Shown here: positions 5,120 through 26,879 of the stretch, piece after piece
How positions within the stretch are numbered: position 1 is the stretch's first letter
Layout: each line of letters opens with the position of its first letter
NCBI GenBank assembly: GCA_964509655.1
Contig: CAZDYW010000002.1
Coordinates: 1 to 43,955, forward strand
Direction: 5' to 3'
Source: an uncultured Anaerolineales bacterium
GTDB taxonomy: Bacteria > Chloroflexota > Anaerolineae > B4-G1
Length of the DNA: 43,955 bases
Notes under the pieces: generated by a model
What the model saw: only the letters and a program-made list of their open reading frames with translations
Database searches by the model: none
What the model was told of the DNA's origin: nothing
Made by a program: the position numbers and the translations under genes

Positions 5120-7180
5120 TCAATTCACCGGCTCGACGCGCACGGCACAGACCTTGTACTCAGGAATCTTGGCGATGGGATCAAGCGCCGCGTTGGTCAG
5201 CGCGTTGGCCGCCGCCTCGACGTAGTGGAAGGGAATGAAGACTACACCGGGCCGAATGCCCGTCGTAAGGCGCACGCTCAACTCGATCTCACCGCGTCGA
5301 CTGGCAACTCGCACCCGCTCCGCGCCATTCAATCCGATGCCAGCCGCATCGTCAGGATGGAGCTCGACGTAAGGCTCCGGTGCCTCCTGTTCTAGCTTCT
5401 CCGAGCGCCGAGTCATCGTGCCGGTATGCCAATGGAACATCATCCGGCCTGTGGTCAGGATGAGAGGATACTCATCGTCCGGCAACTCCACGGCCTCTTT
5501 GAACTCGATAGCATGGAAGTGACCCAGTCCCCGACTGAACATGCCTTTATGCAGATAAGGTGTGCCAGCGTGCTCCTCTGTCGGCACCGGCCATTGGAGA
5601 GAGCCTTCCCTATCCAGCCGCTCGAACGACACTCCGCCGTAGATGGGAGTGACTGCGGCGATCTCCTCCATCACTTCCTCCGGCGACTGGAAGTCAAACC
5701 CCCGAGCTCCTATCCGCTCGGCTAATTGGCAAAGAATCTCCCAATCCGGTTTAGATTCTCCCAATGGCTCGATCGCTTTGCGCACTCGCTGGACGCGCCG
5801 ATCGGTGCCGGTGAAGGTGCCTTCCTTCTCAGCAAACGAAGAACCAGGCAGGACGACATCGGCCAGTTCAGCAGTCTCGGTAAGGAAAATGTCCTGCACC
5901 ACGAGGAAATCAACTTCTTCTAGGCACTCGCGCACGTGGTTTACATCGGGATCGGAGAGCATGGGATTTTCCGCCATCACATAAAGGGCACGAGTGCTCC
6001 CATCCTCGGCTCCCCCTATCATGGCCGTCACCGTCTTTCCCACCTCGTCGGAGAGATTCTTGACGTTCCATACCTGCTCGAACTTCTCCTTGATCTCAGG
6101 CACTGTGACGGCCTGGTATCCGGAGTAGACGTTGGGCAGGCCCCCCAGATCGCAGGCGCCCTGGACATTGTTCTGGCCACGCAGGGGATTGACGCCGCCA
6201 CCAGGGATGCCCATATTGCCAGTGAGCATAGCCAGGTTTGCACATGACTTCACGTTATCGGTGCCAGTGGTATGTTGGGTGATGCCCATCGCGTAGAGGA
6301 TGGCCGCAGGTTTATTCTGCGCGTAAATCCGCGCTGCCTCTCGCAGGTCATCGGCGGGAATACCGCTGATCTCCTCCACCCGCTCTGGTGTATATTCGCT
6401 CACAACCTCACGGAGTTCATCGAGGCCCTCAGTCCGATCCTCTATGAAATCCTCATCATGCAACCCTTCGCTGATGATGACGTTCATCATACCGTTGATC
6501 CAGGCCACATTCGTGCCAGGGCGGGGTTGCAAGTACAGATCGGCCATACGCGCGATGTGTATCTTGCGCGGGTCCACGACGACGATTTTGGCCCCGCGCT
6601 CCTTGGCCTCCATCACGTGGCTGGCGACCAAAGGATGGGCCTCAGAGGTGTTGGAACCGGTGATGAGGAAACACTCGGTGTGTTCGCTGAACTCCGGGAC
6701 GGAGTTGGTCATCGCTCCACTGCCAAACGCGGCGACCAGACCGGCCACCGTGGGAGCGTGTCAGAGGCGTGCGCAGTGATCGACGTTGTTCGTCTTGAAC
6801 ACTGCGCGGGAAAGCTTCTGGATGAGATAGTTCTCCTCGTTGGTGCATTTGGCCGAGGCTAAGAAACTAATGCTATCAGAGCCATACTCATCAGAAATGG
6901 TAGTCAATCGCTCCGCCACCAATCCCAGCGCTTCCTCCCATGTTGCCTCCTCAAGTTGGGCCGAGGGACCATCCCCGCGCCGAATGAGAGGGGTCTTAAG
7001 CCGATCAGGGTGATTGACAAAAGCATCGACGTTCCAGCCCTTGATGCACAGCTGACCGCGACTGATCGGATGTTCCTTATCGGGCAGAACTCCTATGATT
7101 TCTCCATCGAGCACCTGAAAATAAATCCCGCACCCACACCCACAATAAACACAGGTGGTGAGGACGTTTCGGTATTCCAT
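5120..7180 (-). CDS. fdhA: formate dehydrogenase catalytic (alpha) subunit, molybdopterin/tungstopterin, selenocysteine-containing (UGA at 6761..6763 read as Sec)
   Basis: ORFs 6761..7225 and 5120..6748 are in one frame (2061 nt = 687 codons from ATG 7180). Read-through gives [32 protein letters not shown], matching the FdhF/FdhA Sec block. N-terminal 4Fe-4S motif CVYCGCGCG...C. No twin-arginine signal. ATG 7180 has GGGAGG 5 nt upstream and follows the TAG of the upstream gene, so the 7225 start is rejected. Confidence 0.85.
6713..6763 (-). promoter_or_regulatory. Sec UGA plus candidate bacterial SECIS hairpin of fdhA
   Basis: UGA at 6763..6761. After an 11-nt spacer there is an upper stem GGUGGCC/GGUCGCC (6749..6743 pairs with 6737..6731; 7 bp including 2 G-U) with apical loop GGUCU (6742..6738). 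A lower 6-bp stem CGCUCC/GGAGCG (6758..6753 with 6718..6713) is also present. Confidence 0.6.
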
Positions 7181-7190
7181 AAATGCCTCC

Positions 7191-8021
7191 CTACTCCAAC
7201 CTCGAAAGTATCGGCGCCTCTCCAAAAGTCAGAGAGAGCGGTGGTGCATCCTCAATATCGGCCCCAGGCTCGTATCCCACCAAAGTTCCTACGTCCCGTC
7301 GGATCAAGTCATAGAGGACTGTCAATGGAATATGGGCCGGGCAGACCAACTCACATTGGCGGCAAGCGACACAGCGACTGGACATATGCATCGCCCGGAC
7401 TAGATGGAACATTGGGAAGGGGGGAGCCAACACACCCGGTTCCACCCACAAGGGGTCTTCCAAAGCGCAGGCTTCACAGAAGCATTCCGGGCAAATGTTG
7501 CGACACCCATAACACTTGATACACTTCAAGAACTGTTCTTGCCAGAATTCCCGCCGCTCCGCAAGCGACATCTCCTCATATTCCGCGACTAGAGGATTAG
7601 GCGGCCCACTTTCAACCGGCGTTCCGATCAACTCGGCTTGAGGCCAAGGGTCCAATTTAGGCGCAGGATCGGCACAATGACATTCTTCAGCTTCCTCCTC
7701 GGTACAAGCCACCCCTAGTAAGTAGAGCCTATCAGGATCGACTTGTGCTCGCTTGGCCATCTCCACTAATGCGCGGGCGTCACATCCGCGGGCCACAACA
7801 CCTAATTGAGCCTCTGGATAGCGTTTCTGCAAAGCGGAAATGATAAGGCCCATCGCGTAGCGGGGCTCCAGGACCAACTCAGAAGTGTCATCCCCTTCTT
7901 GGAAAAGGTAGGGCGCAGTGCCAACCTCTGTCTTCCGTAGCGCCAAAACGCCATCCAGTTCTTTGAGTTTCTCCGCCACGTGGGCGCGAAGTTCTTCCAT
8001 CAATGTACTTCGTTCGGTCAT
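7191..8021 (-). CDS. 4Fe-4S dicluster protein, putative electron-transfer subunit between FdhA and MvhD/HdrA (FrhB/FdhB- or AsrA-like, family uncertain)
   Basis: Two Cys clusters: CIKCYGCRNICPECFCEAC and CVACRQCELVCP. The N-terminal part contains GVVARGCDARALVEMAK...LLGVAC, reminiscent of FrhB/FdhB-type folds. ATG 8021 has GAGGAG upstream and is preferred. The track start 8072 is a TTG without a good SD. Confidence 0.55.
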   Translation of the reverse strand: MTERSTLMEELRAHVAEKLKELDGVLALRKTEVGTAPYLFQEGDDTSELVLEPRYAMGLIISALQKRYPEAQLGVVARGCDARALVEMAKRAQVDPDRLYLLGVACTEEEAEECHCADPAPKLDPWPQAELIGTPVESGPPNPLVAEYEEMSLAERREFWQEQFLKCIKCYGCRNICPECFCEACALEDPLWVEPGVLAPPFPMFHLVRAMHMSSRCVACRQCELVCPAHIPLTVLYDLIRRDVGTLVGYEPGADIEDAPPLSLTFGEAPILSRLE

Positions 8022-8080
8022 CCTCAGCTCCTCTATGTCGGCATATTGGTGTATTGGCGACCAATCTACCAATTACCAGC

Positions 8081-8503
8081 CTACCGGTCTACCATTTCGT
8101 CGGCGATTGGTCCCAGCGCCCTCACCTTCTCCACGAATTCCTTCGTCACTTTGGCGAACTTCGGCGCCTCGGCCGACGAGACCCAGTCCAGCACGAACCG
8201 GTCAGGGTGAACGCCGACGTACTTCAACAGGTTATGCACCAACGGCATACGCTTTGCCGTGCGGTGATTGCCGTCGATGTAGTGGCAATCGCCGATGTGA
8301 CAACCCAGCACCATCACGCCGTCTGCGCCAGAGCGGAAGGCTCGCAGCACCATCTCCGGCGACACCCGTCCCGAGCACATCACACGGATGGGCAAGACGT
8401 TGGCCGGTGATTGCATCCGGGCCACACCAGCGTTATCCGCCCCGGCATAGGAGCACCAATTACACAAGAAAGCAACAACTCTCGGTTCGAAATCTTCACT
8501 CAT
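8081..8503 (-). CDS. mvhD: MvhD/FlpD-family protein (methyl-viologen-reducing hydrogenase delta subunit-like, 2Fe-2S)
   Basis: 140 aa. Contains VAFLCNWCSYAGADNAG ... IRVMCSGRV ... GADGVMVLGCHIGDCHY, the hallmark FlpD/MvhD pattern. Confidence 0.85.
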   Translation of the reverse strand: MSEDFEPRVVAFLCNWCSYAGADNAGVARMQSPANVLPIRVMCSGRVSPEMVLRAFRSGADGVMVLGCHIGDCHYIDGNHRTAKRMPLVHNLLKYVGVHPDRFVLDWVSSAEAPKFAKVTKEFVEKVRALGPIADEMVDR

Positions 8504-8571: not shown

Positions 8572-10530
8572 TCATCCCACCATGGCCAACAGGCCATCGA
8601 TCTGGGCCACGATTTCCTGATCGGTGAAGTGCAGTTCCGTGACAGCGCCAGAGGGGCAGGTGGCCACGCAAGTGCCACATCCATGACAAAGGGCAGCATT
8701 GACCTCTGCCTTCCCATCGCTGTTTCGGTCAATGGCAGAATAGGGGCAGGATTTTATGCACTCGCCACACCCCACACAAGCTTCCGTCATCACCTCGGCG
8801 ACGATGGGGGAAATAGCAACCTCTCCCTTATTGAAAATTTTGACAGCTTCCTGCGCAGCCGCTCCCGCGTGGGCCACTGTATCGGGAACATCGCGCGGCC
8901 CCTGGCAACAGCCGGCCAGGAAGACGCCAGCGGTGCTGGTCTCAACCGGGCGCAGCTTAGGATGAGCCTCAGCGAACCAGCCATCTGGCGTGCGCCCCAG
9001 CCCGAAGAGAGATGCTACTTTATTGGAATCAGCATAAGGCTCGATAGCAGAGGCAAGAATGACCATATCCACGTCGGCGATGACTAATCTGCCCAGGTCA
9101 GCGTCCTCGCCCTTGACGCGCAGCTTATCATTGGGCAGCACCTCAACCTCGGCGCCGCGACCGCGCACAAAGGTGACTCCTTCCTCCTGTACCCGCTCGT
9201 AGAACTCTTCGTAGGCCTTACCGAAAGCTCGCATGTCCATATAGAAATCATAGACTTCGGCGCCTGTCTTATCGCGCACCTGGTGGGCATGCTTGAGCGA
9301 GTACATGCAGCAGAAACGGGAGCAGTATTCGTGGGCATTCTCATCCCGGCTACCCACGCAGTGGATAATGGCGACGTTCTCCGGAACCTCTCCCTCGGCG
9401 GTCACGATCTCCCCGCCGGTAGGGCCGCTGGCATTGGTGATGCGCTCAAATTGCAAACCGGTGATGATATTAGGGGATTCGCCGTAGGAATACTGCGGGA
9501 GATTCGTGGGGTCCCACATCTCGAAGCCGGTGGCTATGACGATAGCTCCCACCTCCACGTCGAGCAGTTCATCCTCTTGCTCATAATCAACTGCGCCTGT
9601 GGGGCAGACTCTGGCGCATAAGCCACAACGTCCATCCCGCTGGAAGTAGATGCAGTGATCTGTGTCAATCACCGGCACGTTGGGGATGGCCTGAGAGAAA
9701 GGACGATAAATGGCCTTTCGCTTACCCATCCCGGCCTCATAATCGGTGTCGATAACCTTGGTAGGACATTTCTCCTGACAGAGGCCACAACCGGTGCAAA
9801 GATCCTCGTCCACATACCGGGCATGCTTGCGGATACGGGCTTGGAAATTACCTATGTAACCGGAGATTTCCTCGACCTCACTATAGGTTAAAAGCTCAAT
9901 CTTGGGATGCCGACCGGCATCCATCATTTTGGGGCCGAGGATTCAGGTGCTACAGTCAAGTGTGGGGAAGGTCTTATCGAGCTGAGCCATCCGCCCGCCA
10001 ATGGAGGGCTCTTTTTCCACCAGATAGACTTGGTAGCCAGAATCGGCGATGGAGAGCGCAGCCTGTATGCCCGCGATGCCGCCTCCGACCACGAGCGCGG
10101 CCTCGGAGACCGGCTCCTGGCGGGGCTCCAAAGGTTTATGATAGGCCACTCGCGCTACCGCTGACCGTACCAGGCGCTTCGCCTTCTCCGTAGCTTTCTC
10201 CTTGTCCTTGATCACCCAGGAGACGTGCTCGCGGATGTTGGCCATTTCGAAGAAGTAGGGGTTAAGCCCAGCGCCAGCCAGCGCCCGCTGGAAGGTGGGC
10301 TCATGCATTCGAGGGGTACAAGAGGCCACCACCACCCGCTCCAGGTCCAGATCACGGATATCCTCTTGGATCATCTCTTGTCCGGGTTCGGAGCAAGTGT
10401 ATTTATGCTGCCGAGCAATGACCACGCCAGGCAGTTCAGCGGCCATCTCCACCACGGATGATACGTCCACCGTAGCCGCGATGTTGACGCCACACTCACA
10501 GATGTAGACTCCAATGCGAGGTTCTTCCAT
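8572..10530 (-). CDS. hdrA: heterodisulfide reductase subunit A-like flavoprotein, selenocysteine-containing (UGA at 9943..9945 read as Sec)
   Basis: ORFs 9943..10530 and 8572..9927 share one frame (1959 nt = 653 codons). Read-through gives [27 protein letters not shown]. Other features: N-terminal [15 protein letters not shown] motif [13 protein letters not shown], inserted ferredoxin ([21 protein letters not shown]), and C-terminal ferredoxin ([24 protein letters not shown]). Confidence 0.85.
9905..9945 (-). promoter_or_regulatory. Sec UGA plus candidate bacterial SECIS hairpin of hdrA
   Basis: UGA at 9945..9943. Twenty nt downstream there is a perfect 7-bp stem GGAUGCC/GGCAUCC (9922..9916 with 9911..9905) and a 4-nt apical loop GGUC (9915..9912). 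Confidence 0.7.
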
Positions 10531-10571: not shown

Positions 10572-11438
10572 TTACAGAAAATCACTCAACGCCGGTCTCA
10601 CTGACACGACGTGCCGCTTGAACAACAACTTATCCTCCGATAACCCAAAGGCCAATCCGATCAGTTGAGGCAAGAAGAGGATTGGGACATGTAATTCCTG
10701 GTTCATCACGCGCGAGGCCTTACCCTGATAGCTGTCCAGGTTCATATGGCACATCGGACAGACAGTCGAGACGCAATCGGCAGGCTGACATTTCGCCAGT
10801 ATCTCCCCTGCCATGTGATGGCCGACCCTGGGCTTGGTCATCATCAATGAAGTGCCACAGCAAGATGCCTCTCGAGGATGATGATGCACTTCAGCACCCA
10901 ATGCCTCTAAGATGGCGACCATTGAAGTAGGCTTCTCATCATCGTCGAAGGCGCTATAAGGGCGAACGGTCTGGCAACCGTAGTAGGGAGCGACGGTCAA
11001 GCCCTCTAGCGGGCGCTGCACCCGCTCGGCGTAATCCTCCGGGCTGAAATCGTTCGCCAGCACATCCATCAAATGGCGCGACTTGACAGTATTGCGATAG
11101 CTCAAACCCTCCACCTCTAACGCCTTGTTTACTTTTTCCAGAAGCTTTGGATCATCGGAGAGAGCTTGTGAGGTACGCCGAAAGTTGGTGTAGCAAGCAC
11201 TGCAAACAGCGAGCATGTCCGAGGTGTCATCAGCTTGCTCTGCCAAAGCCAGGTTACGAGCTGGAAGCACGATGCCCAGGAGATCACTGATCACCGGAGC
11301 CGCGCTGGCCCCACAGCAGGTCCAATCTTCCAATTCCTCCACCTCAGCCCCCAAGGCCTTCAGCACGGCAAGTGTCGAAGCCTTGTACTCCAGAGCAGAA
11401 GCGTCCGCTGAACAGCCGGGGTAAAAAAGATACTTCAT
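10572..11438 (-). CDS. hdrB: heterodisulfide reductase subunit B-like (two CCG domains)
   Basis: 288 aa. Two complete Cys patterns: YPGC...WTCCG...VCSAC and YYGC...ASCCG...VCPMC. The start overlaps the hdrC stop (ATGA). Confidence 0.85.
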
Positions 11439-12013
11439 TGCTGCGCCTCCAGTTCTGCCACACGCTCAAACAGCGGCTCTAAACGTCCCTCACCGCCCAG
11501 CTTAGGCATTTCTGGGTAAGCCTTTCCACGACTAACCAGGGTGATTCCAAGACCGGCGAAGCCCAGAGCACTCAAAGGATTAGTAGCCAAGAAGAAACGT
11601 ACCATAAACTCCATCTCCCGCATACGTCCATAGCGGCGCACAATGTCGACAAAGGTACGATAGAAGCCAACGCTATCCTTGGATGCAGCGATTCTTTGCT
11701 CAATCGCCATCTCTTTAAGGCGGGTGATGGTCTCGGTGAGAGGAATACCACGGGGGCAACGCACTTGGCACTGATAACAAAGGCTGCATAGCCACATTGT
11801 CTTGCTGCGCAGCACCTCGTCTGTCAGGCCCAACTGTACCATGCGCCACATCTTGCGGGGGCTGATGTCCATCGCTGGAGCTGCCGGGCAGGATGCGGTG
11901 CAAGTACCACACTGAATACAGCGACGGAGAAGTTCTCCATTCTCGATGAGGTGATCTGCAAAGGCGGGATCACGTTTCGCCGTCGTTAAGTTCACAACCT
12001 CAGCAGTCGCCAA
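11435..12013 (-). CDS. hdrC: heterodisulfide reductase subunit C-like (2x 4Fe-4S)
   Basis: 192 aa. CIQCGTCTASCP and CSLCYQCQVRCP. TTG start with AGGAGG 6 nt upstream. Confidence 0.8.
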   Translation of the reverse strand: MATAEVVNLTTAKRDPAFADHLIENGELLRRCIQCGTCTASCPAAPAMDISPRKMWRMVQLGLTDEVLRSKTMWLCSLCYQCQVRCPRGIPLTETITRLKEMAIEQRIAASKDSVGFYRTFVDIVRRYGRMREMEFMVRFFLATNPLSALGFAGLGITLVSRGKAYPEMPKLGGEGRLEPLFERVAELEAQQ

Positions 12014-12264: not shown

Positions 12265-13707
12265 TCACCCTGCCTTAATTTTTGCACTCCACCACAGAGC
12301 CTCTAACTCATCCTCGGTCAACTTCCTCATATCTCGTCCTTGCTCAAGAGCGGCTTGTTCCATATGACGGAAACGATGTGCGAAACGAGCGTTGGCTTTA
12401 CGCAAAGCGGTCTCCGCATCCAGACCCAGCCAGCGGGCCCAGTTGACTATGGCGAACAATAGATCGCCCAACTCGGCCTCCTTTTCCTCCGGTGAGATGG
12501 CCGATTTCAACTCGCCGATTTCCTCATGCACCTTCTCAACAACCCCACCCACCTCGCTCCAATCGAATCCCACGCGGGCCGCACGACGACTGTAGGTATC
12601 GGCTTGCTGCAATGCAGGCAGAGCATCGGGCACGCCATCGAGCGCCGAACTCCCTTCCCCCCTCTCCTCACGCTTCAGTTCCTCCCAATGGAGCAGTACC
12701 TCATTAGATCCTTTGACCGCCTGATCCCCCCAAACGTGTGGGTGACGATGCTTGAGCTTGACGTCGATGCCAGAGATTACTTGCGCCATTTGAAATTCAC
12801 CCGCCTCTGTCGCAATCTGGGTGTGAAGTAGCACTTGCAACAAGAGATCGCCCAGTTCTTCCCTCAGCGCTGACACGTCGTCGAGATCAATGGCGGACAC
12901 GGTCTCGTAAGCCTCCTCCAACAACGCGGATCGCAAGCTCGCGTGCGTCTGCTCGCGATCCCAAGGGCAGCCATCCGGGGCCCTAAGGTGGGCGACGGTT
13001 TCTTGCAAGCCCTCGAAGCTACTAACGCCCGGCAATGGTGGCACGTAAAGTGTGGTCAAGTGAGCGATGTTCCTTTGATGATCAAGCTCATAGAGGGGCA
13101 AGCGGACGATGCGCTGATCTGGGCTTCCAGCCGCGTGCACTAATACAACCTCGTGGTCGTCCGGATATTGATTCATCAAAGTGAGTTTGACATCGGTGGC
13201 GAGGTCTCTTCCATAGAGCTGGCCCACCAAAGCTGGCAGATCGGAATTCAGTAAAGGGTGATGAAGAAGCGCCAGCTCGATAGCGTCCTGTATCTGCAAG
13301 CCCTCCAAGGCATCTATGCCCAGAGAGGCGAGTGTCGGGGTCACGAAGCTCATCCCCTCCACTATGCGCACCTCAAGGTCAAATTTCTCAGCACTGGTCA
13401 AGATCAGCTTCACTGTGGCTTCCCCCACAAAAGGGTGACCTGGCACAGCATAGATAACACCTTGAGGACGTTGACCCAAACTCAATATCTCGGCAGCAAT
13501 CGCTTCGTAGACTTCCGAGAAGTTATCCGCTTTCTCGTAGAGGTTATCAAAGGAGTGTACTGTAAGATTGGAAGGTAACTCAGCTACTGTGGGATGATGC
13601 TCCGTGCGCAACCAGATTTCATCGGCACTTTCTAAAACGGCCCATGCCTCCCGCGTCAAGTGATGTAGTGCACCAGGCCCAAGACCGAGGATAGTGATCA
13701 CGTTCAT
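12265..13707 (-). CDS. mazG: tetrapyrrole-methylase-like domain fused to MazG nucleoside-triphosphate pyrophosphohydrolase (YabN-like)
   Basis: N-terminus ITILGLGPG (TP_methylase fold). C-terminal MazG repeats (EEAYETVSAIDLDD...EELGDLLLQV and EEIGELKSA...ELGDLLFAIVNWARW). ATG 13707 has GGAGG upstream. The longer track start 13764 would run through the rpsI terminator. Confidence 0.8.
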   Translation of the reverse strand: MNVITILGLGPGALHHLTREAWAVLESADEIWLRTEHHPTVAELPSNLTVHSFDNLYEKADNFSEVYEAIAAEILSLGQRPQGVIYAVPGHPFVGEATVKLILTSAEKFDLEVRIVEGMSFVTPTLASLGIDALEGLQIQDAIELALLHHPLLNSDLPALVGQLYGRDLATDVKLTLMNQYPDDHEVVLVHAAGSPDQRIVRLPLYELDHQRNIAHLTTLYVPPLPGVSSFEGLQETVAHLRAPDGCPWDREQTHASLRSALLEEAYETVSAIDLDDVSALREELGDLLLQVLLHTQIATEAGEFQMAQVISGIDVKLKHRHPHVWGDQAVKGSNEVLLHWEELKREERGEGSSALDGVPDALPALQQADTYSRRAARVGFDWSEVGGVVEKVHEEIGELKSAISPEEKEAELGDLLFAIVNWARWLGLDAETALRKANARFAHRFRHMEQAALEQGRDMRKLTEDELEALWWSAKIKAG

Positions 13708-13749
13708 ATAAACCTCCACAAAAACAGCGAGCGACTGTGCAGCTGGCGT

Positions 13750-13783
13750 ATACAAAAAGGGCAAGACATTTCTGTCTTGCCCT
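13750..13783 (-). terminator. intrinsic terminator after rpsI (end of ribosomal super-operon)
   Basis: Minus-strand RNA GGGCAAGACA-GAAA-UGUCUUGCCC (perfect 10-bp stem, 13782..13759) followed by UUUUUGU. Confidence 0.75.
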
Positions 13784-13805: not shown

Positions 13806-14198
13806 TTAGCGCTTGGTGTACTGAGGAGCCTTGCGAGCTTTCTTTAGACCTGGCTTCTTACGTTCTTTGATGCGAGAGTCACGAGTGAGATACCCACCCT
13901 TGCGCAGCGGTGGCCTATAGTCAGGATCCACCTCTAACAGCGCCCGTGCAATACCCAACTGAACCGCGCCTGCTTGTCCTCGAATTCCCCCACCCTTAAC
14001 CAGAACACTGACATCAAAGCGTCCCGATGTATCAGTTGCCTCAAACGGCTCCAGGAGGTGAAACACATCCATCTCGCGGCAGAAATACTCCCTAAGCGGT
14101 CGGTCGTTGACCACGAAAGAGCCACCTTCACCACCAGTATGAAGTCGCACTCGAGCAGTCGCTGCCTTTCGCCTTCCCACTCCTTCGTAATACGTCAT
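13806..14198 (-). CDS. rpsI: 30S ribosomal protein S9
   Basis: 130 aa, [14 protein letters not shown] ... C-terminal [12 protein letters not shown]. Confidence 0.95.
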
Positions 14199-14210
14199 CT
14201 ATATCTCCTC

Positions 14211-14648
14211 CTATCCTTCCAATTCCATCGCTTCCGGCTGCTGAGCTATATGAGGATGATCAGGGCCAGCATAAACCTTTAATTTCTTTAACATCTTCCG
14301 ACCCAACCGGTTTCGGGGCAACATGCCCCGCACCGCGAGTTCAATCACTCGAGCGGGGTTTTTCTGAAGCAGATTGCCCAAGGTAATCGCTTTGAGATTG
14401 CCCGGGTAGCCAGAATGCCGATAATAGATCTTCTGATCTAGTTTGCGGCCTGTCACTTGGATCTCCTCAGCATTGACGATGATCACATAATCACCAACAT
14501 CAACAGCAGGAGAGTAGATCGGCTTATGCTTTCCACGGAGAATTTGTGCTACTTTGCTCGCCAAGCGACCCAAAGTGTGCCCTGCGGCATCCACCACATA
14601 CCATTCTCGTTGGACATCTTGTTCTTTCGTAACGTAAGTCTTTTCCAC
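14211..14648 (-). CDS. rplM: 50S ribosomal protein L13
   Basis: 145 aa, [30 protein letters not shown]. Confidence 0.95.
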
Positions 14649-14685
14649 AGCCTTACAACTCCCGTTTAATAAGTCATTGAAGTTA

Positions 14686-15459
14686 TCAATAATTCACTTT
14701 AATCAGACACAAACCATGTGCAGGAGCAGTAGTGCCTGCTTGACTGCGATCACACGCCTTGAGGGCTGCAACGAACTCCTTCACACTTATTCTCTTCCAC
14801 CCAACCTGGAGCAAGGTACCGACTATGCTGCGCACCATCCGATAGAGAAACGCATTGGCCTCAATATCGAAAGTCAACCACAAGCCTTGCTGTGAGCCCC
14901 GCTCTTGTCTCCGCAACCCATAATCGTAAGGGTGCTCATTCCACGAGGCGCGGAACAGATTCCGCACTGTTACATTGCCTTGAGGCGGTTGCCCAAAAGT
15001 AGCGAAGTCCTGTTCTCCTACCAGGTATTGAGCCGCTTGCTGCATCGCTGCCACATCCAATGGCTTGGACACATGTAAGCTGTATCTATCAACCAAGGGG
15101 CAGCGCACTGGCGTATTGTAAAATGTATACTGGTACCACCGGCTACGTGCGTCGTAGCGCGGGTGAAAATCTAGCTCAGCTACTTCCAATTCACGAACAG
15201 CTATATCTTCAGGCAGTACAGCATTCATAGCTCGCTGCAAGTCGCCTATCTCGTGACGCCAAGCCGTATCAAAAGCGATCACTTGTCCTTTTGCATGCAC
15301 GCCAGCATCCGTACGTCCGGCTGCGATTATATTGATAGTTTCTTGCGTTACCTGCGCCAGTGTAACTTCCAGAGCCTCCTGGATGGTAAAGGCATTAGCC
15401 TGACGCTGAAACCCGCTATAGTTCGTCCCATCGTAGGCTACCACCGCCTTCACTCGCAT
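14686..15459 (-). CDS. truA: tRNA pseudouridine(38-40) synthase TruA
   Basis: 257 aa, [13 protein letters not shown] ... [11 protein letters not shown] (catalytic Asp motif). Confidence 0.9.
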
Positions 15460-15523
15460 CTTACTACAGAAAGCCTCCGTTCGTGAAAGTTCATAAAAGG
15501 CTGATGCTGTTAAAGGAAGAGTC

Positions 15524-15940
15524 CTACTCTTCCTCGACTAGCTCCAAAAGCACCATAGGGGCTGCATCACCTTTTCGCGGCCCCAATTTATAGATGCGAG
15601 TGTAGCCACCTGGTCGATCCATGTAACGTGGAGCAATGTCCACAAACAGCTTCTCCAAGATATCCACCCACCAACCTTCCTTATCCATCACCCATCTGTT
15701 CATACGACTTGACGCCAGTCGGCGTGCATGGACACCACGACTTGGATCATCAGTTTCTGCCTTCAAGCCCCGCTTTGCTAGTGTGATCAACTTCTCAGCA
15801 TGCCGGCGGGTTACTTTAGCCTTTGCTTCAGTTGTTTCGATACGTTCGTGATAAAGCAAGGCCGTCACCAAGTTACGTCTTAAGGCCTTGCGATGTCCGC
15901 TCGATCGCCCCAATTTTTTACCTGCGACGCGATGCCGCAT
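15524..15940 (-). CDS. rplQ: 50S ribosomal protein L17
   Basis: 138 aa, [24 protein letters not shown]...ETTEAKAK. Confidence 0.95.
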
Positions 15941-16905
15941 TATGCACCTCCACTTTCTACTTCATCCAACAAACCTTCTTCGTCAAGACGCTCGCGAACC
16001 TCAATCAATGACTTGGCGCCAAAGTTGCGGACGGCCAACAAGGCATCGTCCCCGCCCTCCTCCAACATCTCCAGCACTTCTCCAACATTTTTGATACCTG
16101 CACGACGAAGAGCGTTGAACACTCGTGTACTCAAATCAAGCCGGTCTAGAGGCATATCATATGCTTCACTGGACAAAACCGGTTCTTCCTCTGGCTCGCT
16201 AGGCTCAGGGGCTTCTTCCTCCAGCGTGAGTCCCGCAATTAGCCGTAGATGTGTCAGCATAATACGGGCTGCGGTTTTCAATGCATTGAATGGCTCGATG
16301 CGACCATCACTCCAAATCTCCAGTGTTAATCGATCATAATCCGTCATCTGCCCCACTCGAGCGCGATCCACATCGAAAGAGACACGACGAATAGGACTAA
16401 ATATTGCATCGACGGGCAACTCACCCACGAGCATCCGGCTCCGTCCTTCTTGGTCAGCAGGACGATAACCATGCCCACGATCAACGGTAAAATCGATATC
16501 AAAAGAAGCCTTCTCATCATCTACAGAGAATAAGTACAGATCAGGGTTCAGAATCTCTACTTCGGGTGGAGCCATAATATCTCCCGCCGTAACAGTGCCT
16601 TCACCCTCTACATGCAAAGACATGTGCATGGTTTCTTCGTTTTCCATCTTCAAGCGCAACTGCTTGACCTGTAACATGAATTGCATTACGTCCTCTCGCA
16701 CCCCCGGTATCACAGAGAACTCGTGAGGAACATCCGTAATGCGAATCGCTGTCACAGCCGCGCCCGGCAACGATGATAGCAACACTCGTCGAAGCGTGTT
16801 GCCCACCGTAATCCCAAAGCCACTCTCCAGCGGGCCGATCACGAATCGGCCATACGTCTGGGATATTACATCTGTCTCAACTTTTGGCAACACTTGAACT
16901 GACAA
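15940..16905 (-). CDS. rpoA: DNA-directed RNA polymerase subunit alpha
   Basis: 321 aa, [35 protein letters not shown]-terminal domain [25 protein letters not shown] start with GAGGAGG upstream. Confidence 0.95.
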
Positions 16906-17035
16906 CCAGCGCCTCCTCTTTCCTAGCCTCCGGTCTGCATGGAAAATGTATCATTGAGAGAAATAATCATCAAAGCAAAAAACATAGAGGTGTACCTTTC
17001 GCCCTCCAGTAACGTCCAAGTTGGCAGGCTAACCC

Positions 17036-17677
17036 CTAACGCGAATAATACTCTACAATCAACTGCTCGTTTATTGCTGTGCTGATCTCCTCGCGCGCCG
17101 GCTCCTTCAACATTTGCCCGGTCATTCCTTCTACATCCAGGCTTAACCAACCCGGCACTGCCCCCTCTTCCAGCCTCTTAGCACGATCTTTAAAGTAAGT
17201 GCGCTTAAGGCTGACCTCACGAACTGAGATCACATCTTGAGGTCTAATGAGATATGAGGGAGTGGTGGTACGAGTGCCATTGACAACGAAATGCCCATGC
17301 GATACCAGTTGACGTGCTTGGGGTCGAGAATCGGCAAAGCCCAACCGATAAACGATATTATCCAACCTTCGCTCCAACAGGATCAGCAGGTTTTCACCCG
17401 TAAGCCCTGGTCGACCCTCAGCTTTTTCAAAGAAACGCCGGAACTGACGTTCCAGCAAGCCATATATGCGCTTAGCCTTCTGTTTTTCACGCAACTGACG
17501 TGCATAATCAGATTGACGACGGCGACGGAAGCGTGCCAGCCAACCATGGTCACCTGGCGGATATCCTCGCTTTCGCTCAAACGGGCATTTTGAGGAGAAG
17601 CATCGCTCCCCCTTCAAGAATAACTTTTCCCCTTCACGACGACACAGTTTACAAACCGGGCCTTTATATCTTGCCAT
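17036..17677 (-). CDS. rpsD: 30S ribosomal protein S4
   Basis: 213 aa, [26 protein letters not shown]. Confidence 0.95.
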
Positions 17678-17711
17678 ACTTTCACTCCTCCGTTATTTAC
17701 CCACACGCAAG

Positions 17712-18098
17712 CTACGTCCGACGCCTCTTAGGTGGGCGACAGCCGTTATGCGGAATCGGGGTCACGTCGGTGATAGAGAGAACTTTAATCCCTGTTGACT
17801 GAATAGCACGGATCGCAGCCTCTCGACCGGGGCCGGGGCCCTTAACGTAAACATCCGCTTCTCGCATACCCATATTTATCGCCTCGTCGGAAGCTTTACG
17901 GGCAGCTTGCTGAGCAGCGAAAGAGGTGCTTCTACGCGCCCCCCTGAAACCGACAGATCCACCACTGGCCCAGTTGAGAACGTTCCCTTGTTGGTCCGTC
18001 ATAGTCACAATAGTATTATTGAAAGTAGCATGGATGTGCGCTTCTCCGCGCGGGACGTTCCTCTTGACCCGTCGGCGTCTCGACCGTCGTTTTGCCAT
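17712..18098 (-). CDS. rpsK: 30S ribosomal protein S11
   Basis: 128 aa, [18 protein letters not shown] ... [12 protein letters not shown]. Confidence 0.95.
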
Positions 18099-18107
18099 TC
18101 CTTCCTC

Positions 18108-18497
18108 CTACTTCTTCTTCATTCCGCGCTTCCGCCCACGGCCAGCCACAGTCTTACGTGGCCCCTTGGCAGTACGCGCGTTAGTGCGTGTTCGCTGACC
18201 ACGAACAGGCAAGTTGCGTATATGCCTGATACCTCGGTAACATCTGATATCTTTCAGACGCCGTATGTTCATCTGGACTTCACGTCGCAAATCACCTTCG
18301 ACCTTGTATCCACGATCAATGGTCGAACGCAAGCTAGCAACCTCCGACTCAGTCAAGTCTCGAACTCGTGTATCCGGGTTAACGTCCGCTGCTTCCAGAA
18401 CATCGTTGCTTAAACTGCGCCCAATCCCATAGATATAGGTTAAGGCAACCTCTACTCTTTTATTCCGGGGCAGATCTACACCTGCTATACGTGCCAT
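18108..18497 (-). CDS. rpsM: 30S ribosomal protein S13
   Basis: 129 aa, [26 protein letters not shown]. Confidence 0.95.
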
Positions 18498-18568
18498 AAC
18501 TAACCTCCCTTAAAAGTCCCAAAGACCAATCCCTCAAACCCTACAAAAAGCTGGGATTGGAGTTTTAA

Positions 18569-18682
18569 CTATCCTTGGCGCTGCTTGTGTTTGGGATTGT
18601 CACAAATTACGTATACGGTGCCACGCCTTCGGACTATTTTGCACTTCGGACAACGTCGCTTAACTGAAGCTGAAACCTTCAT
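18569..18682 (-). CDS. rpmJ: 50S ribosomal protein L36
   Basis: Not in the ORF track because it is under 60 aa. My minus-strand translation is [37 protein letters not shown] (37 aa) with a zinc-ribbon Cys/His pattern. GGGAGG/AGGAG lies upstream of ATG 18682. Confidence 0.9.
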
Positions 18683-18757
18683 CTCCTAAACCTCCCTTTA
18701 GCCAACCAGTCTGTCAAAAAAGAACTTATTCTGCTACTAAAAACAACAAGCATCCAA

Positions 18758-19525
18758 CTAATCCAGCCTTGTCAAAACTTCTGCATTACCATCATTGATA
18801 TAAATGGTATGCTCGAAGTGAGCAGTTTTTTTCCCATTACAAGAAACAACGGTCCAATGATCATCTAGAACCTTCACGCAAGGATCTCCAACCAGCACCA
18901 TGGGCTCCAACGCGACCGTCATCCCTCTTCGCAAACGAACGCCTTGCCCTGGCTTACCATGATTAGGAACCTGAGGGTCTTCGTGCATTTCCCGACCAAT
19001 ACCATGACCGGTGTATTCACGCACCACGTTATATCCATGGCTTTCTACGTAGAACTGTATGGCCGCTGATATGTCGCCAGAACGATTACCTGCACGAGCA
19101 GCAGCAATGCCAGCGCTCAGAGCGCCTTTAGTCACTGCTAACAGATCTTTCACTTCCTGACTGACCTGCCCGACGGGCAAGGTGACCGCTGCATCTCCAT
19201 GATAGCCATCCAAGATTGCTCCCACATCAACACTTATGATGTCGCCTTCTTGGAGCACTCGAGAACCAGGAATACCATGCACTAACTCGTCATTGACCGA
19301 AGCACATATACTGCTTGGGAAAGGATGTAGACTCCCCGGCGGGTATCCTTTGAACGATGGGATAGCATTATGCTTACGAATTATTATTGATTCGGCTACC
19401 TCATTCAATTCCGCCGTGGTAATCCCGGGAGTAACATTTTCGCGCATAGCATCCAACACTTCGGCCACAATCCGGCCAGAGCGGCGCATTTTTTCGATTG
19501 CAGAAGGTGATTTTAGTGTGATCAA
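18758..19525 (-). CDS. map: type I methionine aminopeptidase
   Basis: 255 aa, metal ligands in ISVDVGAILDGYHGD ... GHGIGREMHE ... LEPM. Confidence 0.92.
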   Translation of the reverse strand: MITLKSPSAIEKMRRSGRIVAEVLDAMRENVTPGITTAELNEVAESIIIRKHNAIPSFKGYPPGSLHPFPSSICASVNDELVHGIPGSRVLQEGDIISVDVGAILDGYHGDAAVTLPVGQVSQEVKDLLAVTKGALSAGIAAARAGNRSGDISAAIQFYVESHGYNVVREYTGHGIGREMHEDPQVPNHGKPGQGVRLRRGMTVALEPMVLVGDPCVKVLDDHWTVVSCNGKKTAHFEHTIYINDGNAEVLTRLD

Positions 19526-19548
19526 AATAGCCTACTAACCTAAATGTT

Positions 19549-20877
19549 TTACTTGATGAAACCTTCGTAGTGACGCATCAACAGCTGTGCTTCCAACTGC
19601 CGCATAGTATCCAATACTACACCTACCACAATCAGCAAGCCGGAAGAGGTAATGAGCAAAACCCCTGTTTGCATAAATAGATCTACAATGTAAGGCAATA
19701 CCGCCACCCCACCAAGGAACAAAGCACCTACTAGCGTGATACGCCTATATATGGTATTGATGTATTCCGCTGTCCTCTTACCCGGCCTGATTCCCGGAAT
19801 AAAGCCACCTTGACGCTTCAAAGCCCCCGGCAAGTCCTGCTGCTGAATCATCACATCGGTGTAGAAATAAGTGAACCCTACGACAGCCAAGAAGTAAAGC
19901 AATCCATACCACGGGCTTTGTCCACTGAAAAAGTTCATTACACCTCTTGAAAAATTAGCGACAGCAGCACTCTCGGCATTCGCGAAGAATTGCGCTATTA
20001 CAGCCGGAAAAGTAAGTATGGATTGAGCAAAAATCAAAGGGATCATCCCTGCCGTATTAATACGCAAGGGAATGTGCGTGCTTCCCCCACCATAAACCTT
20101 GATGCCCCGCACACGCTTACCGTACTGGACGGGTATCCTACGCTCCCCTTCCTGCACAATGACAATAACAAACATAGTGACAACGGTTATCAGTAGGAAA
20201 ATGCCCACCATCAAAATCCCCATACCGATGTTGCCCTCGACCGTCGCTTGGGTCCAGATACGCACCAGATTCTCTGGGACACGCGCTACAATGCCACTGA
20301 AAATAATCATGGATAACCCATTGCCAATTCCCTGCTCGGTGATCAACTCACCCAACCAGATGGCGAACATAGTACCGGCAGTCATTGCTACAAGTACCGA
20401 AATCGTAGTCAAGACACTCCCTGGGCTACCAAAGCCGAACTGGGGCAGAACAGGAGCTTGTCCAGCATTGACCAATCGAATTTGACCGAAAGCCTGCAAT
20501 AATCCCAATGGGATGGTGATGTAATAGGTCCACTGGTTCATCTTCTGTTGACCAGCTTCACCCTCTTCAGCCAACCGTTCCAAGCTCGGAATGATCGGCT
20601 GTAGAAGCGACATAATAATGGAAGCAGTTACATAGGGGTACACGCCATTTGCCATAACCGAGAAACGTGCCACCGCGCCACCGGAGAGCATATCCAAAAG
20701 ATTGAACAGCCTACTAGCGCCACCAGTGCCGGCCAACAGTTGTTGTAGCGCAGCCTGATCAACTCCGGGCACCGGCACGTGTGCCGCCAAGCGGTAGACG
20801 ACAAGAATCAGTAATGTGTATAATAACTTGCGCCGCAGGTCGGGCAAGGTCATGGCATTGCGTAAAGCTTTAATCAT
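19549..20877 (-). CDS. secY: preprotein translocase subunit SecY
   Basis: 442 aa, 10-TM profile, LRRKLLYTLLILVVYRL ... GIRPGKRTAEYI. Confidence 0.95.
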   Translation of the reverse strand: MIKALRNAMTLPDLRRKLLYTLLILVVYRLAAHVPVPGVDQAALQQLLAGTGGASRLFNLLDMLSGGAVARFSVMANGVYPYVTASIIMSLLQPIIPSLERLAEEGEAGQQKMNQWTYYITIPLGLLQAFGQIRLVNAGQAPVLPQFGFGSPGSVLTTISVLVAMTAGTMFAIWLGELITEQGIGNGLSMIIFSGIVARVPENLVRIWTQATVEGNIGMGILMVGIFLLITVVTMFVIVIVQEGERRIPVQYGKRVRGIKVYGGGSTHIPLRINTAGMIPLIFAQSILTFPAVIAQFFANAESAAVANFSRGVMNFFSGQSPWYGLLYFLAVVGFTYFYTDVMIQQQDLPGALKRQGGFIPGIRPGKRTAEYINTIYRRITLVGALFLGGVAVLPYIVDLFMQTGVLLITSSGLLIVVGVVLDTMRQLEAQLLMRHYEGFIK

Positions 20878-20946
20878 AATCTTTATCCCCTATTCTGCAA
20901 TCGCCTTACTCTCAGCGATGGAACGAAAACAAATTACAATCAGTCA

Positions 20947-21432
20947 CTATCGCGTTCGGTAGCCTCCGCGCTGCCAAGGCAACTCTTCCACTACACCACC
21001 CGCGGATTCAATTTTGGATTTAGCGCTTTCCGAGAAACGGTGTGCCTTAACAACGAGAGGCCATTCTACCTCCCCTCTACCCAAAACGGCCACCAGTTCC
21101 TTTGAACTGCTGATAACACCAGCTTCGGCCAGTGTTTCGGGTGTTACTTCATCGCCTTCTTGGAAGCCAGCCAACAGGATCCGCTTTATGTTTACAGGTG
21201 TGAATTTAACACGCCATGGATCTCTAAAATCCGCGCCACGCTCCTTGGGAGTCCGTTGCCAGAGAGGTGTCTGTCCACCCTCGAAACCAGGCCGCACTCC
21301 ACCGCCACTACGGGCATTCTGGCCTTTTGTACCACGCCCGGCCGTTTTGCCATAGCCAGAGCCTCTACCACGTCCCACACGCTTCTTTTCTTTCTTTGCA
21401 CCTTCAACAGGGTTCAATTCGTGTAACTTCAC
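20947..21432 (-). CDS. rplO: 50S ribosomal protein L15
   Basis: 161 aa, [23 protein letters not shown]. Confidence 0.95.
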
Positions 21433-21444
21433 CTCTACCTCCCG

Positions 21445-21654
21445 CTACTCCTTGGGATCGCCATTTATCTCCTCTACACTCACAAGATGCCTCACACGGT
21501 CAATCATCCCTCGAATGGTCGGGGTATCCTTTCGCTCCACGACCTGATGCATCTTCCGCAATCCCAAAGCTCGCACTGTGCGCTTTTGTCGATAAGAACA
21601 ACCTATCTGACTCTTAGTCAATGTAATGCGCAAGTTCAAGTCTTTATTGCTCAT
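21445..21654 (-). CDS. rpmD: 50S ribosomal protein L30
   Basis: 69 aa, [26 protein letters not shown]. Confidence 0.9.
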
Positions 21655-22166
21655 TTTTCTCGACTCCAGAATGGCATTACTTTTTCCTTAGGCAAGCCGC
21701 GCTCTCGAGCTACTTCTTCCACACTCCGCAGTCGCTTGAGGCCATCCATAGTAGCCTGTACCACACTGAGCGCATTGGGACTACCTAGCGACTTAGTAAG
21801 CACATCCTGCACACCAACGGCCTTCATCACAGCGCGCACGCTACCGGCTGCGATTACCCCTGTTCCTGGTGATGCAGGCTTGAGCAACACTCGCGCGCCG
21901 CCACACTCGCCGATAATTTCGTGGGGGATAGTAGAACCCAGTAAATTCACGCTCACCATATTACGGCGGGCTCGGTCCATGCCTTTGTGGATCGCATCGG
22001 GAACACCACGTGCTTTTCCAACGCCAACCCCCACCTGTCCATGGTTATCACCAACTACGGTGACTACCCGGAAGCCAAACCTGCGACCTCCCTTGACAAC
22101 TTTCGCAACGCGCTTGATGTCCACAACGCGCTCATCCAGCTCCTCTCGTTTATCGAACTGCGCCAT
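21651..22166 (-). CDS. rpsE: 30S ribosomal protein S5
   Basis: 171 aa, [27 protein letters not shown]. Confidence 0.95.
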
Positions 22167-22183
22167 GCTGCCTCCACTCTACC

Positions 22184-22549
22184 TCAAAAATCAAGCCCGC
22201 CTTCACGGGCAGCTTCTGCCAAAGCCTTCACCCGGCCGTGATACTTGTACCCGCCGCGATCAAAGACTACTTTTTCAACACCTTGACTCAAAGCACGCTT
22301 TGCCAAAATCTCACCAACCAGCTGTGATTGCTCAGTCTTCGTTTTTCCTTCTAAATGCGGCTTCACATCCGGGTCAACGGTCGAAGCAGAAACAAGCGTG
22401 TGTCCCTCCATATCGTCTATCACCTGAGCGTAAATGTGATGCAAGCTACGGAAGACGTTCAAGCGTGGCCGCTCTCGTGTTCCAAACACATGCTTTCGCA
22501 CACGCCTATGCCGTTTCAGACGAGCCGCCCGACGATTAACTCCTGACAT
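22184..22549 (-). CDS. rplR: 50S ribosomal protein L18
   Basis: 121 aa, [20 protein letters not shown] ... [24 protein letters not shown]. Confidence 0.95.
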
Positions 22550-22570
22550 ATCTCACCTTAGATCCATAGA

Positions 22571-23128
22571 CTAATAGGCGCCGATCTTACCGGCCTTGCC
22601 AGCCTTGCGCGGCACATGCTCGCCAACGTAGCGGATACCCTTACCCTTGTAAGGTTCCGGTGGTCGCCAAGCTCGAATCTCCGCCGTCACGCGCCCAACC
22701 AACTCCTTATCAGCACCGCTCACAGTGATCAACTTCGGCCGAGGGTCGACTTCAAAATCGATTCCCTCCGGCGGAGCGATGAGGACAGGATGAGAAAATC
22801 CTAACTGTAGCTCCAGACTGCCATCCTGTTTCTGATCCACACGGTAACCTACACCGCGAACTTCCAATTTTTTCTGGAAACCCTCGGTCACACCGATGAC
22901 CATGTTATTCAACAATGCTCTAGTAAGTCCATGCAATTCCCTATGCCGCTGCTGGTTTGTTGGACGGTGTACATGGATCTGCCCATCCTCAAGCACGATT
23001 TCCATATCCGAATGAAACTCGCGGGAAAGGTCCCCTTTCGGACCCGACACAGTCACTTTAGAACCATCAATATCCACCCTGACTCCCTCAGGAAGAGGGA
23101 TGGGCATTTGGCCAATTCGTGACATCAA
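22571..23128 (-). CDS. rplF: 50S ribosomal protein L6
   Basis: 185 aa, SRIGQMPIPLPEGVRVDIDGSKVTVSGPKG. Confidence 0.95.
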   Translation of the reverse strand: MMSRIGQMPIPLPEGVRVDIDGSKVTVSGPKGDLSREFHSDMEIVLEDGQIHVHRPTNQQRHRELHGLTRALLNNMVIGVTEGFQKKLEVRGVGYRVDQKQDGSLELQLGFSHPVLIAPPEGIDFEVDPRPKLITVSGADKELVGRVTAEIRAWRPPEPYKGKGIRYVGEHVPRKAGKAGKIGAY

Positions 23129-23168
23129 CTATCTCCCTTAACAACACTAGACTCGAAGTAAGTCTAGT

Positions 23169-23576
23169 CTACCACACGTAACACAATACTTCACCACCAA
23201 TTCCCATGCCTCGGGCTTGTTTCCCCGTCAAAACGCCTTTCGAGGTGGTCAAGATAGCAATCCCCATACCACTCCGTACCCATGGTATCTCCGAGGCAGG
23301 AGTATAAACGCGACGCCCCGGCTTACTGACACGCTTCATCCCTCTGATAACCGGGTGGCGATCTTTTCTTTCGCCCACATATTTGAGGTCGATAAGCAAT
23401 TGACTCTGTGGGCTCTCATCTGTCAAATGGTAGTCCCCGATAAACCCTTCGTCTTTCAAAATTTTGGCAATAGACACCTTCATTTTGGACGAAGGTAAAG
23501 CTACACTAGGGTACCCCATTGTCAAGGCATTACGAATACGCGACAACATATCAGCTATTGGGTCAGATACTACCAT
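23169..23576 (-). CDS. rpsH: 30S ribosomal protein S8
   Basis: 135 aa, DPIADMLSRIRNA ... GGEVLCYVW. Confidence 0.95.
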   Translation of the reverse strand: MVVSDPIADMLSRIRNALTMGYPSVALPSSKMKVSIAKILKDEGFIGDYHLTDESPQSQLLIDLKYVGERKDRHPVIRGMKRVSKPGRRVYTPASEIPWVRSGMGIAILTTSKGVLTGKQARGMGIGGEVLCYVW

Positions 23577-23607
23577 TGAATAAGACCTCGTTTTCGCTCT
23601 AGTTGGT

Positions 23608-23796
23608 TCACCAACTCGCTTTTCTCACACCAGGCAACTCGCCTTCCAGGGCAAGTTCCCGAAAGCAAATACGACACAATTCGAATCGCCGCATATAACC
23701 ACGCGGTCGACCACAACGTTTGCATCGATTTCGCACCTGCACTTCGTGCTTACGATTTTTCTCTCTTTCAACCAGGCATTTTCTTGTCATACTCAC
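23608..23796 (-). CDS. rpsN: 30S ribosomal protein S14, type Z (zinc-binding)
   Basis: 62 aa, [25 protein letters not shown] (CxxC...CxxC), C-terminal KASW. Confidence 0.92.
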
Positions 23797-23812
23797 TCCC
23801 TTCCAGTTCAGT

Positions 23813-24702: not shown

Positions 24703-24719
24703 GCTCCCTACCAGTGCCC

Positions 24720-25091: not shown

Positions 25092-25093
25092 AA

Positions 25094-25572: not shown

Positions 25573-25575
25573 AAT

Positions 25576-26847: not shown

Positions 26848-26879
26848 ATTCTCTCCTCCTTCTTGCTCTTAGCCCCCGC

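Follow-up and report, generated by a model that had tools for sequence, protein, structure and literature searches.

Two adjacent open reading frames (ORFs) on contig CAZDYW010000002.1 (assembly GCA_964509655.1) of an uncultured Anaerolineales bacterium are parts of one continuous gene, hdrA, which encodes heterodisulfide reductase subunit A and is interrupted by a single in-frame UGA. Judged from this sequence and its relatives, hdrA very probably encodes selenocysteine (Sec) at the UGA, codon 196, by way of a hairpin with a GGUC loop that begins 20 nt downstream. The hairpin is coupled to the UGA: wherever relatives keep the UGA they also keep the hairpin, and the closest relatives with a Cys codon in its place have lost the GGUC loop. 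Throughout, the window is the whole stretch of DNA that was analysed, 43,955 nt (positions 1 to 43,955 of the forward strand), and hdrA lies on its minus strand within an operon that contains a second UGA-interrupted gene, fdhA. The argument rests on the following features, SECIS standing for selenocysteine insertion sequence:

8572..10530, minus strand: hdrA, 652 codons plus the terminal TGA (8572..8574), internal UGA read through
9943..9945, minus strand: in-frame UGA, proposed Sec codon 196; aligns with Sec197/Cys197
9952..9954, minus strand: Cys193 codon, proposed partner of Sec196 in C-x-x-U; DC-S-T-U in the translation, DCxxC in homologs
9923..9942, minus strand: spacer between UGA and hairpin, 20 nt, no conserved structure, length invariant (no indels in 80 sequences)
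9905..9922, minus strand: proposed SECIS hairpin, 7-bp stem GGAUGCC/GGCAUCC and loop GGUC (9912..9915), supported by folding, synonymous invariance and RNAalifold

hdrA is one gene with an internal UGA

The ORFs at 9943..10530 (195 aa plus stop) and 8572..9927 (451 aa) share one frame of the minus strand, with the TGA and five sense codons (9928..9942) between them. Translated in a single frame, 8572..10530 is interrupted once only, by the TGA that forms codon 196, and alignment of the read-through product with the solved HdrA chains 8rvu, 8rvv, 5odc, 7bkb and 9sfi extends over residues 1-648 (E 1e-231 to 4e-192); for 9sfi, the HdrA of M. maripaludis, this is full-length homology at E 4e-192. 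In related loci, one tblastn segment covers residues 1-651 of the read-through protein. The product has the N-terminal Fe-S, thioredoxin-reductase-like flavin adenine dinucleotide (FAD), inserted ferredoxin and C-terminal ferredoxin domains of the HdrA family, and matches NCBIfam HdrA2 (E 6e-256) and HdrA (E 7e-189), both under curated cut-offs that are methanogen-specific.

We compared the protein with its 120 best database homologs, 114 of which are full-length (about 650 aa or more, 58-73% identical). Among these 120, UGA-type relatives are present solely as C-terminal fragments of 450-451 aa (P0006, P0009, P0013, P0016, P0017 and P0028), several of them annotated 'heterodisulfide reductase subunit A'. 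Splitting of this kind by gene callers has already been noted for archaeal hdrA (PMC12054007).

The UGA stands at the Sec/Cys column and is conserved

In a focused alignment the UGA falls on a column that is occupied by 'X' (selenocysteine), residue 197, in 9sfi_A, by Cys197 in 5odc_A (M. thermolithotrophicus HdrA) and by Cys in 8rvu, 8rvv and 7bkb. Cys, in the motif D-C-x-x-C, is likewise found there in 113 of the 114 full-length homologs. The single exception, P0112, has Trp: it is a Dehalococcoidia-labelled HdrA homolog (L085:1242-3200) that reads DCSAWIL at the column. This Trp is not a mistranslated TGA, as the DNA has a genuine TGG codon and no hairpin; it may inactivate the protein or stem from a sequencing error.

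A genome scan with one genome per species yielded 79 loci with HdrA relatives (59-97% protein identity), mostly in metagenome-assembled genomes (MAGs) of Anaerolineae, Thermoflexia and other Chloroflexota, with some in deltaproteobacterial, Syntrophaceae and Syntrophorhabdales MAGs; the scan was seeded with six peptides, one of them KMMDAGRH, and so favours the UGA clade, while its degenerate patterns bring no bias at synonymous positions. The aligned codon is TGA in 79 of 79 loci, in the context KTFPTLDCS[T/I/A], and each locus has exactly one in-frame stop from codon 6 to the natural gene end. Two marks of the HdrA selenoprotein subfamily are present, a UGA at the D-C-x-x-U/C column and its retention in orthologs while Cys homologs exist.

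It might be objected that the locus is a pseudogene, or a truly split gene with a 195-aa N-terminal part and a 451-aa C-terminal part translated from the ATG at 9927. Gene callers make this very split, the database holds the corresponding 450-451-aa C-terminal fragments under the name HdrA, and an ATG does occur five codons past the stop. We nonetheless regard either version as highly improbable: the same TGA recurs in all of the relatives down to 59% identity with no other frame lesion and with both halves conserved, and a split would bisect the FAD-binding thioredoxin-reductase-like domain exactly at the redox Cys/Sec column. By eye, moreover, there is no AGGAGG-like Shine-Dalgarno sequence in the bases upstream of the internal ATG (GGCCCCAAA), whereas the true start at 10530 is preceded by AAGGAG; and the internal ATG ATG overlaps the 5' edge of the hairpin, the stem beginning with the final G (9922) of the second ATG. 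A preliminary description of this DNA had proposed that hdrA is one gene rather than two ORFs or a pseudogene, with two same-frame ORFs parted by a TGA and five sense codons and with the stop at a conserved HdrA Cys. Its coordinates all agree with the ORF list and the translation, the Sec197/Cys197 column bears out the position of the stop, and the single gene is upheld by full-length homology and by the TGA in 79 of 79 relatives.

Since TGA is one base away from both TGC and TGT, a sequencing or assembly error for one of these Cys codons could also be imagined. The chance of this is vanishingly small, as the same TGA is present in 79 independent assemblies from various studies and environments, including L071, which is 97% identical.

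A conserved hairpin follows the UGA

The sequence GGAUGCC-GGUC-GGCAUCC, starting exactly 20 nt past the UGA, forms a hairpin that is the centroid structure in every segment folded (-12.3 kcal/mol). Perfect 7-bp hairpins with loops of 3-8 nt occur 22 times per strand in the 43,955 nt, or about 0.014 expected per 28-nt interval behind a given codon, and the 36-nt hairpin core has a fold z-score of -2.7 against dinucleotide shuffles. The evidence that the hairpin is not there by chance is modest from this sequence alone, and decisive from comparison.

The hairpin is found 20 nt downstream of the UGA in all 79 loci. Across 80 distinct sequences, the third positions of its codons GAU, GCC, GGU, CGG and CAU are identical in 80, 80, 80, 79 and 79 cases, respectively, while third positions in equally conserved flanking codons, those of the spacer included, vary freely. 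The loop GGUC is invariant (80/80), its synonymous U included. Codon entropy over the whole gene tells the same story: the mean is 1.18 bits over 333 degenerate codon columns that are conserved, and the lowest of 329 five-codon windows is that of the hairpin codons D-A-G-R-H at 0.04 bits, the next independent window having 0.65 bits. RNAalifold, applied to 20 diverse members, returns the 7-bp stem and the GGUC loop only, with the spacer unpaired, and reveals a compensatory change from a C-G to a U-A pair in L066 that is accompanied by a change from Ala to Val. An identical hairpin is present in the deltaproteobacterial, Syntrophaceae and Syntrophorhabdales MAG copies (L057, L059, L061, L067, L077 and L078).

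Some MAGs contain two or three hdrA paralogs that are about 60% identical to one another, namely the pair at L001 (1722-3668 and 6001-7953), L016, L035 and L062 in one MAG, and L066 and L071 in another. All of them have the identical 18-nt hairpin, the second L001 copy (1722-3668) included, and the main hdrA match of each such locus has TGA at the Sec codon. Given paralogs with the same hairpin, Sec-hdrA would be a multi-copy family in these genomes.

The hairpin is coupled to the UGA

The closest Cys-type relatives for which DNA was compared (L080:6001-7965, L082:2932-4890 and L083:6001-7956) are 71-73% identical and belong to the same operon. All three have a TGC codon at the column; in place of GGUC their loops carry GGCC, GGCA or AGCC, and their stems are degraded too. 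The remnant in L080, GAUGCC-GGCC-GGCAUC, suggests that the whole operon was converted from Sec to Cys recently; hairpin relics after such recent conversions have been described by Zhang et al. (PMC1794560). One peptide, M-M-D-A-G-R-H, overlaps the hairpin and stays invariant throughout the UGA clade, but it varies in Cys-type homologs (MVEAGRH, MVDASRH, MTQVGSH, MTSVGMH and others). Its invariance where the UGA is present is therefore due to a constraint on the RNA, not on the protein.

In the L080, L082 and L083 operons, fdhA, the formate dehydrogenase alpha gene, has a Cys codon as well, whereas in UGA-type loci fdhA has the TGA in 30 of 31 copies. A joint switch of hdrA and fdhA is expected if the switch mirrors the presence or absence of the Sec-decoding trait. 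The preliminary description had pointed to a perfect 7-bp GGUC hairpin 20 nt after the UGA, which both single-sequence folding and RNAalifold recover, and had named related copies that keep the stop without a conserved hairpin as an observation that would count against its proposal. No such copy is seen among the 79 loci, all of which have both; it is the Cys-codon relatives that have lost the GGUC loop.

A second UGA in fdhA and the surrounding operon

On the minus strand the operon reads hdrC-hdrB-hdrA-mvhD-fdhB-fdhA. Apart from hdrA it comprises:

11435..12013, minus strand: hdrC, start codon uncertain; NCBIfam CoB_CoM_SS_C (E 8e-25, below the curated cut-off), Pfam Fer4_8 and Fer4_17
10572..11438, minus strand: hdrB; two Pfam CCG domains, NCBIfam CoB_CoM_SS_B (E 2e-47, below the curated cut-off)
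8081..8503, minus strand: mvhD (FlpD family), all-Cys form; Pfam FlpD (E 7e-53)
7191..8072, minus strand: FdhB-like iron-sulfur subunit, 293 aa; C-terminal half matches 9t1s_M (E 1e-35), 7bkb_E and 8rvu_E
5120..7180, minus strand: fdhA, formate dehydrogenase alpha, internal UGA read through; NCBIfam Fdh-alpha, 692.7 bits (cut-off 666.25)
6761..6763, minus strand: second in-frame UGA, FdhA residue 140, the classical FdhA Sec site (...HCARL*HAPTV...)
6708..6766, minus strand: fdhA SECIS, a long stem right after the UGA; Rfam SECIS_3 (RF01989), 51.2 bits, E 3.9e-10 (gathering score 63)

Like hdrA, fdhA appears in ORF lists as two entries, 6761..7225 and 5120..6748. Folding of its SECIS gives an upper hairpin GGUGGCC-GGUCU-GGUCGCC (6749..6731), and the core of the element is conserved in related loci with wobble and compensatory changes. 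With the U of the UGA numbered nt 1, nt 15 is the first base of the upper stem, which gives a spacing of 11 nt, and the G and U of the loop fall on nt 23 and 24. The hdrA hairpin shares the core GCCGGUC with this element and lies 9 nt (three codons) farther from its UGA. As a marker of further SECIS in the window the 7-mer GCCGGTC is uninformative (11 matches against 6 expected), and a search of the whole window at Rfam gathering thresholds gave no match, permissive thresholds bringing up the fdhA element alone.

The FdhB-like protein is about 90-120 residues shorter than methanogen FdhB (293 aa compared with 380-414 aa); its Fe-S Pfam matches are weak, and nothing in the methanogen FdhB chains matches its N-terminal half. 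Operon order is kept in the closest clade (L001-L031, L067, L071 and L076), with fdhA beside hdrA-mvhD-fdhB. Within that order, insertions of 0.5-2.7 kb are seen between mvhD and fdhB in L009, L010, L011, L015 and L016, and between fdhB and fdhA in L005 and L076. An fdhA paralog upstream of hdrA in L029 (4128-5894; 49% identical) has TGG at the Sec codon and a loop changed from GGTC to GATC, and may have decayed or diverged in function. A YabN-like methyltransferase/MazG gene (12265..13764) alone separates the hdr-fdh operon from a cluster at 13806..38826 on the minus strand that resembles the large ribosomal-protein cluster with secY, rpoA, EF-Tu, EF-G and rpoC; S9, L5 and SecY are recognised by Pfam, and the other members are presumed on ORF size.

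Selenocysteine insertion or selenium-free read-through

UGA is an ordinary terminator in the window. Fifteen of 44 long ORFs end with TGA; two of these ends are the internal UGAs of hdrA and fdhA, and the 13 others include the genuine terminators of hdrA, of fdhA and of a 1296-aa ORF at 34936..38826. A systematic scan of the window for in-frame TGA junctions found hdrA and fdhA as the only two on coding strands, the four others being antisense to real genes. General reassignment of UGA is excluded by this usage.

Several observations weigh against Sec insertion, or at least against a SECIS of the familiar kind. A tRNA scan found no tRNA in the window and, in 60 related loci, tRNA-Ser and tRNA-Phe only, with no tRNA-Sec. 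No sel gene was found among 20 window ORFs scanned with Pfam, the remaining, mostly ribosomal-cluster, ORFs not having been scanned; the 20 include a two-component system, alcohol dehydrogenase, YabN/MazG, S9, L5, SecY, a GNAT acetyltransferase, CinA and a GAF/PAS histidine kinase. Fold z-scores against dinucleotide shuffles are not significant for longer segments (-0.18 for 66 nt, -0.60 for 46 nt), and for this reason comparative evidence was used instead of folding energy. Covariation in turn is nearly absent, as the stem hardly varies, with one compensatory pair in 80 sequences. The hdrA hairpin has no Rfam match even at a permissive E of up to 10. Finally, its stem is perfect, with no counterpart of the bulged U in the E. 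coli fdhF element, it has no conserved lower stem, and it begins 20 nt past the UGA rather than 11 nt as in E. coli fdhF and in the fdhA of its own operon. The bulged U17 and the 11-nt spacing are, however, features of E. coli fdhF that are not universal in bacteria, as the bSECISearch model reflects.

What the hdrA hairpin does have is the general make-up of a bacterial SECIS: a stem-loop inside the coding sequence and 3' of the UGA, conserved G and U in the apical loop, and a structure under selection that is coupled to the UGA. It resembles the E. coli fdhF SECIS in its position and in a GGUC loop that exposes G and U; in E. coli, G23 and U24 are the conserved apical-loop positions, and U17 and G23 are sites of SelB binding (PMC8659212). 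The SECIS_3-like element of fdhA has its G23 and U24 at the very positions of E. coli fdhF (PMC8659212). A literature search found no paper with the exact hdrA hairpin sequence.

An alternative that keeps the single gene is selenium-free read-through, in which the UGA would be read by a near-cognate tRNA (Trp or Cys) or be reassigned, and the hairpin would merely slow the ribosome or stabilise the mRNA. Stem-loops past stop codons can indeed boost read-through in other systems, the scans described above brought to light neither a sel gene nor a tRNA in the window, and the distant homolog L085 has a genuine TGG (Trp) at the column. We give this explanation very little weight. TGA is the normal terminator of the 13 other long ORFs, and the loop is invariant where neither pairing nor the protein constrains it: U as third base of the Gly codon and C as first base of the Arg codon are each present in 80 of 80 sequences. 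Such invariance of unconstrained loop bases argues for sequence-specific recognition, as with G23/U24 in E. coli (PMC8659212), and not for a generic roadblock. The loop core GCCGGUC recurs in the fdhA SECIS of the same operon, a homolog of experimentally determined structure (9sfi) has Sec at the column, and hdrA and fdhA change to Cys codons jointly in related operons. For the host itself, two genes with UGA and hairpin in one operon, together with the SelB genes reported in Anaerolineales single-cell genomes (PMC4959059), provide indirect support for Sec decoding.

Proposed mechanism

By analogy with the bacterial Sec system, the hairpin 20 nt downstream of UGA196 would recruit SelB·GTP·Sec-tRNA(Sec) through its GGUC loop, and selenocysteine would be inserted at UGA196 in place of termination. 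Homology to the M. maripaludis structure would place Sec196 in a C193-x-x-U196 motif of the thioredoxin-reductase-like FAD domain, where Sec196 and Cys193 may form a redox-active pair near the FAD. A cryo-EM study of the M. maripaludis Hdr-Vhu-Fwd complex published in 2026 reported Sec197 in HdrA, forming with a cysteine an apparent selenylsulfide between the bifurcating FAD and cluster A3 (PMC13518236). The selenylsulfide in M. maripaludis has been proposed to serve as a redox relay that links the bifurcating FAD with an iron-sulfur cluster. Cys193 is the presumed partner of Sec196 on account of the C-x-x-U spacing, the partner Cys being given no number in PMC13518236. Gene order and homology to 7bkb, 9t1s and 8rvu suggest that the operon products most likely assemble into a formate-dependent flavin-based electron-bifurcating Fdh-MvhD-HdrABC complex, whose formate dehydrogenase would be a selenoprotein too.

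Comparison with known systems

In the archaeon M. maripaludis the SECIS of hdrA lies outside the coding region, whereas the present gene has a bacterial-type hairpin inside its coding sequence; its host, moreover, is an Anaerolineae-type bacterium and not a methanogen. The proteins are nonetheless alike in the proposed placement of Sec at the same D-C-x-x-U column (PDB 9sfi/9t1s) and in their association with MvhD/VhuD, HdrB, HdrC and formate dehydrogenase (PMC13518236).

Recognition of HdrA as a bacterial selenoprotein family dates from 2004-2006, with in-frame UGA in the hdrA of strict anaerobes that also have Sec-FdhA, among them Syntrophobacter, Syntrophus, Moorella and Carboxydothermus (PMC1794560). 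The present gene resembles this family in its in-frame UGA and in the co-occurring Sec-FdhA (PMC1794560). The published Sec-hdrA operons are, by their description, mainly of the hydrogenase-linked type glpC-hdrA-frhD-frhG-frhA, in contrast to the formate-linked hdrCBA-mvhD-fdhBA found here in a member of the Chloroflexota. An HdrBCA-MvhD-FdhBA cluster with Sec-FdhA has been described in deep-sea Chloroflexi and in Desulfobacula toluolica by Sewell et al. 2017 (PMC5736913). As presented in their account of the cluster, it has the same gene content and order as here, with Sec-FdhA downstream of mvhD, hdrA and hdrBC, and differs in that hdrC and hdrB are separate ORFs in our operon; in that same account Sec is described for FdhA only, and a Sec in HdrA goes unmentioned.

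The present gene is, then, a further member of HdrA, a known selenoprotein family whose genes are routinely broken up by gene callers, and not a new kind of system. Already known are bacterial HdrA selenoproteins (PMC1794560), their splitting by gene callers (PMC12054007) and, going by the cluster account in PMC5736913, the operon type in Chloroflexi.

Implications

Mildly noteworthy are the cross-phylum invariance of a hairpin that belongs to no Rfam family and the occurrence of 11-nt and 20-nt spacings from UGA to stem within one operon. The hairpin is unchanged between Chloroflexota and deltaproteobacterial lineages whose HdrA is only about 60% identical. We put forward, as a tentative idea that is less likely to be right than wrong, that the hdrA hairpin represents a distinct, ultra-conserved class of bacterial SECIS, with an invariant 18 nt, a perfect unbulged stem and a fixed, unstructured 20-nt spacer. 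If so, the same SelB must also read the 11-nt fdhF-type element of the operon, which would make the operon a natural test of the spacing tolerance of SelB. Transfer of Sec-hdrA modules between phyla, and not constraint alone, could also lie behind the identity of the hairpin across phyla. The gene illustrates overlapping constraints, in that the RNA hairpin freezes a peptide, M-M-D-A-G-R-H, that Cys-type homologs are free to vary.

The current understanding of selenocysteine decoding is not affected by these findings, and the result is best described as a well-supported re-annotation. Its consequences are for the lineage: in public protein sets this gene and its dozens of orthologs in MAGs of Anaerolineae and other Chloroflexota are represented by fragments truncated to about 450 aa, so that the selenoproteome of these bacteria, which are abundant in the subsurface, is understated, and their capacity for electron bifurcation with it. 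Read correctly, the operon encodes an intact formate-linked Fdh-MvhD-HdrABC module with two selenoproteins, and predicts that formate metabolism in this lineage is dependent on selenium.

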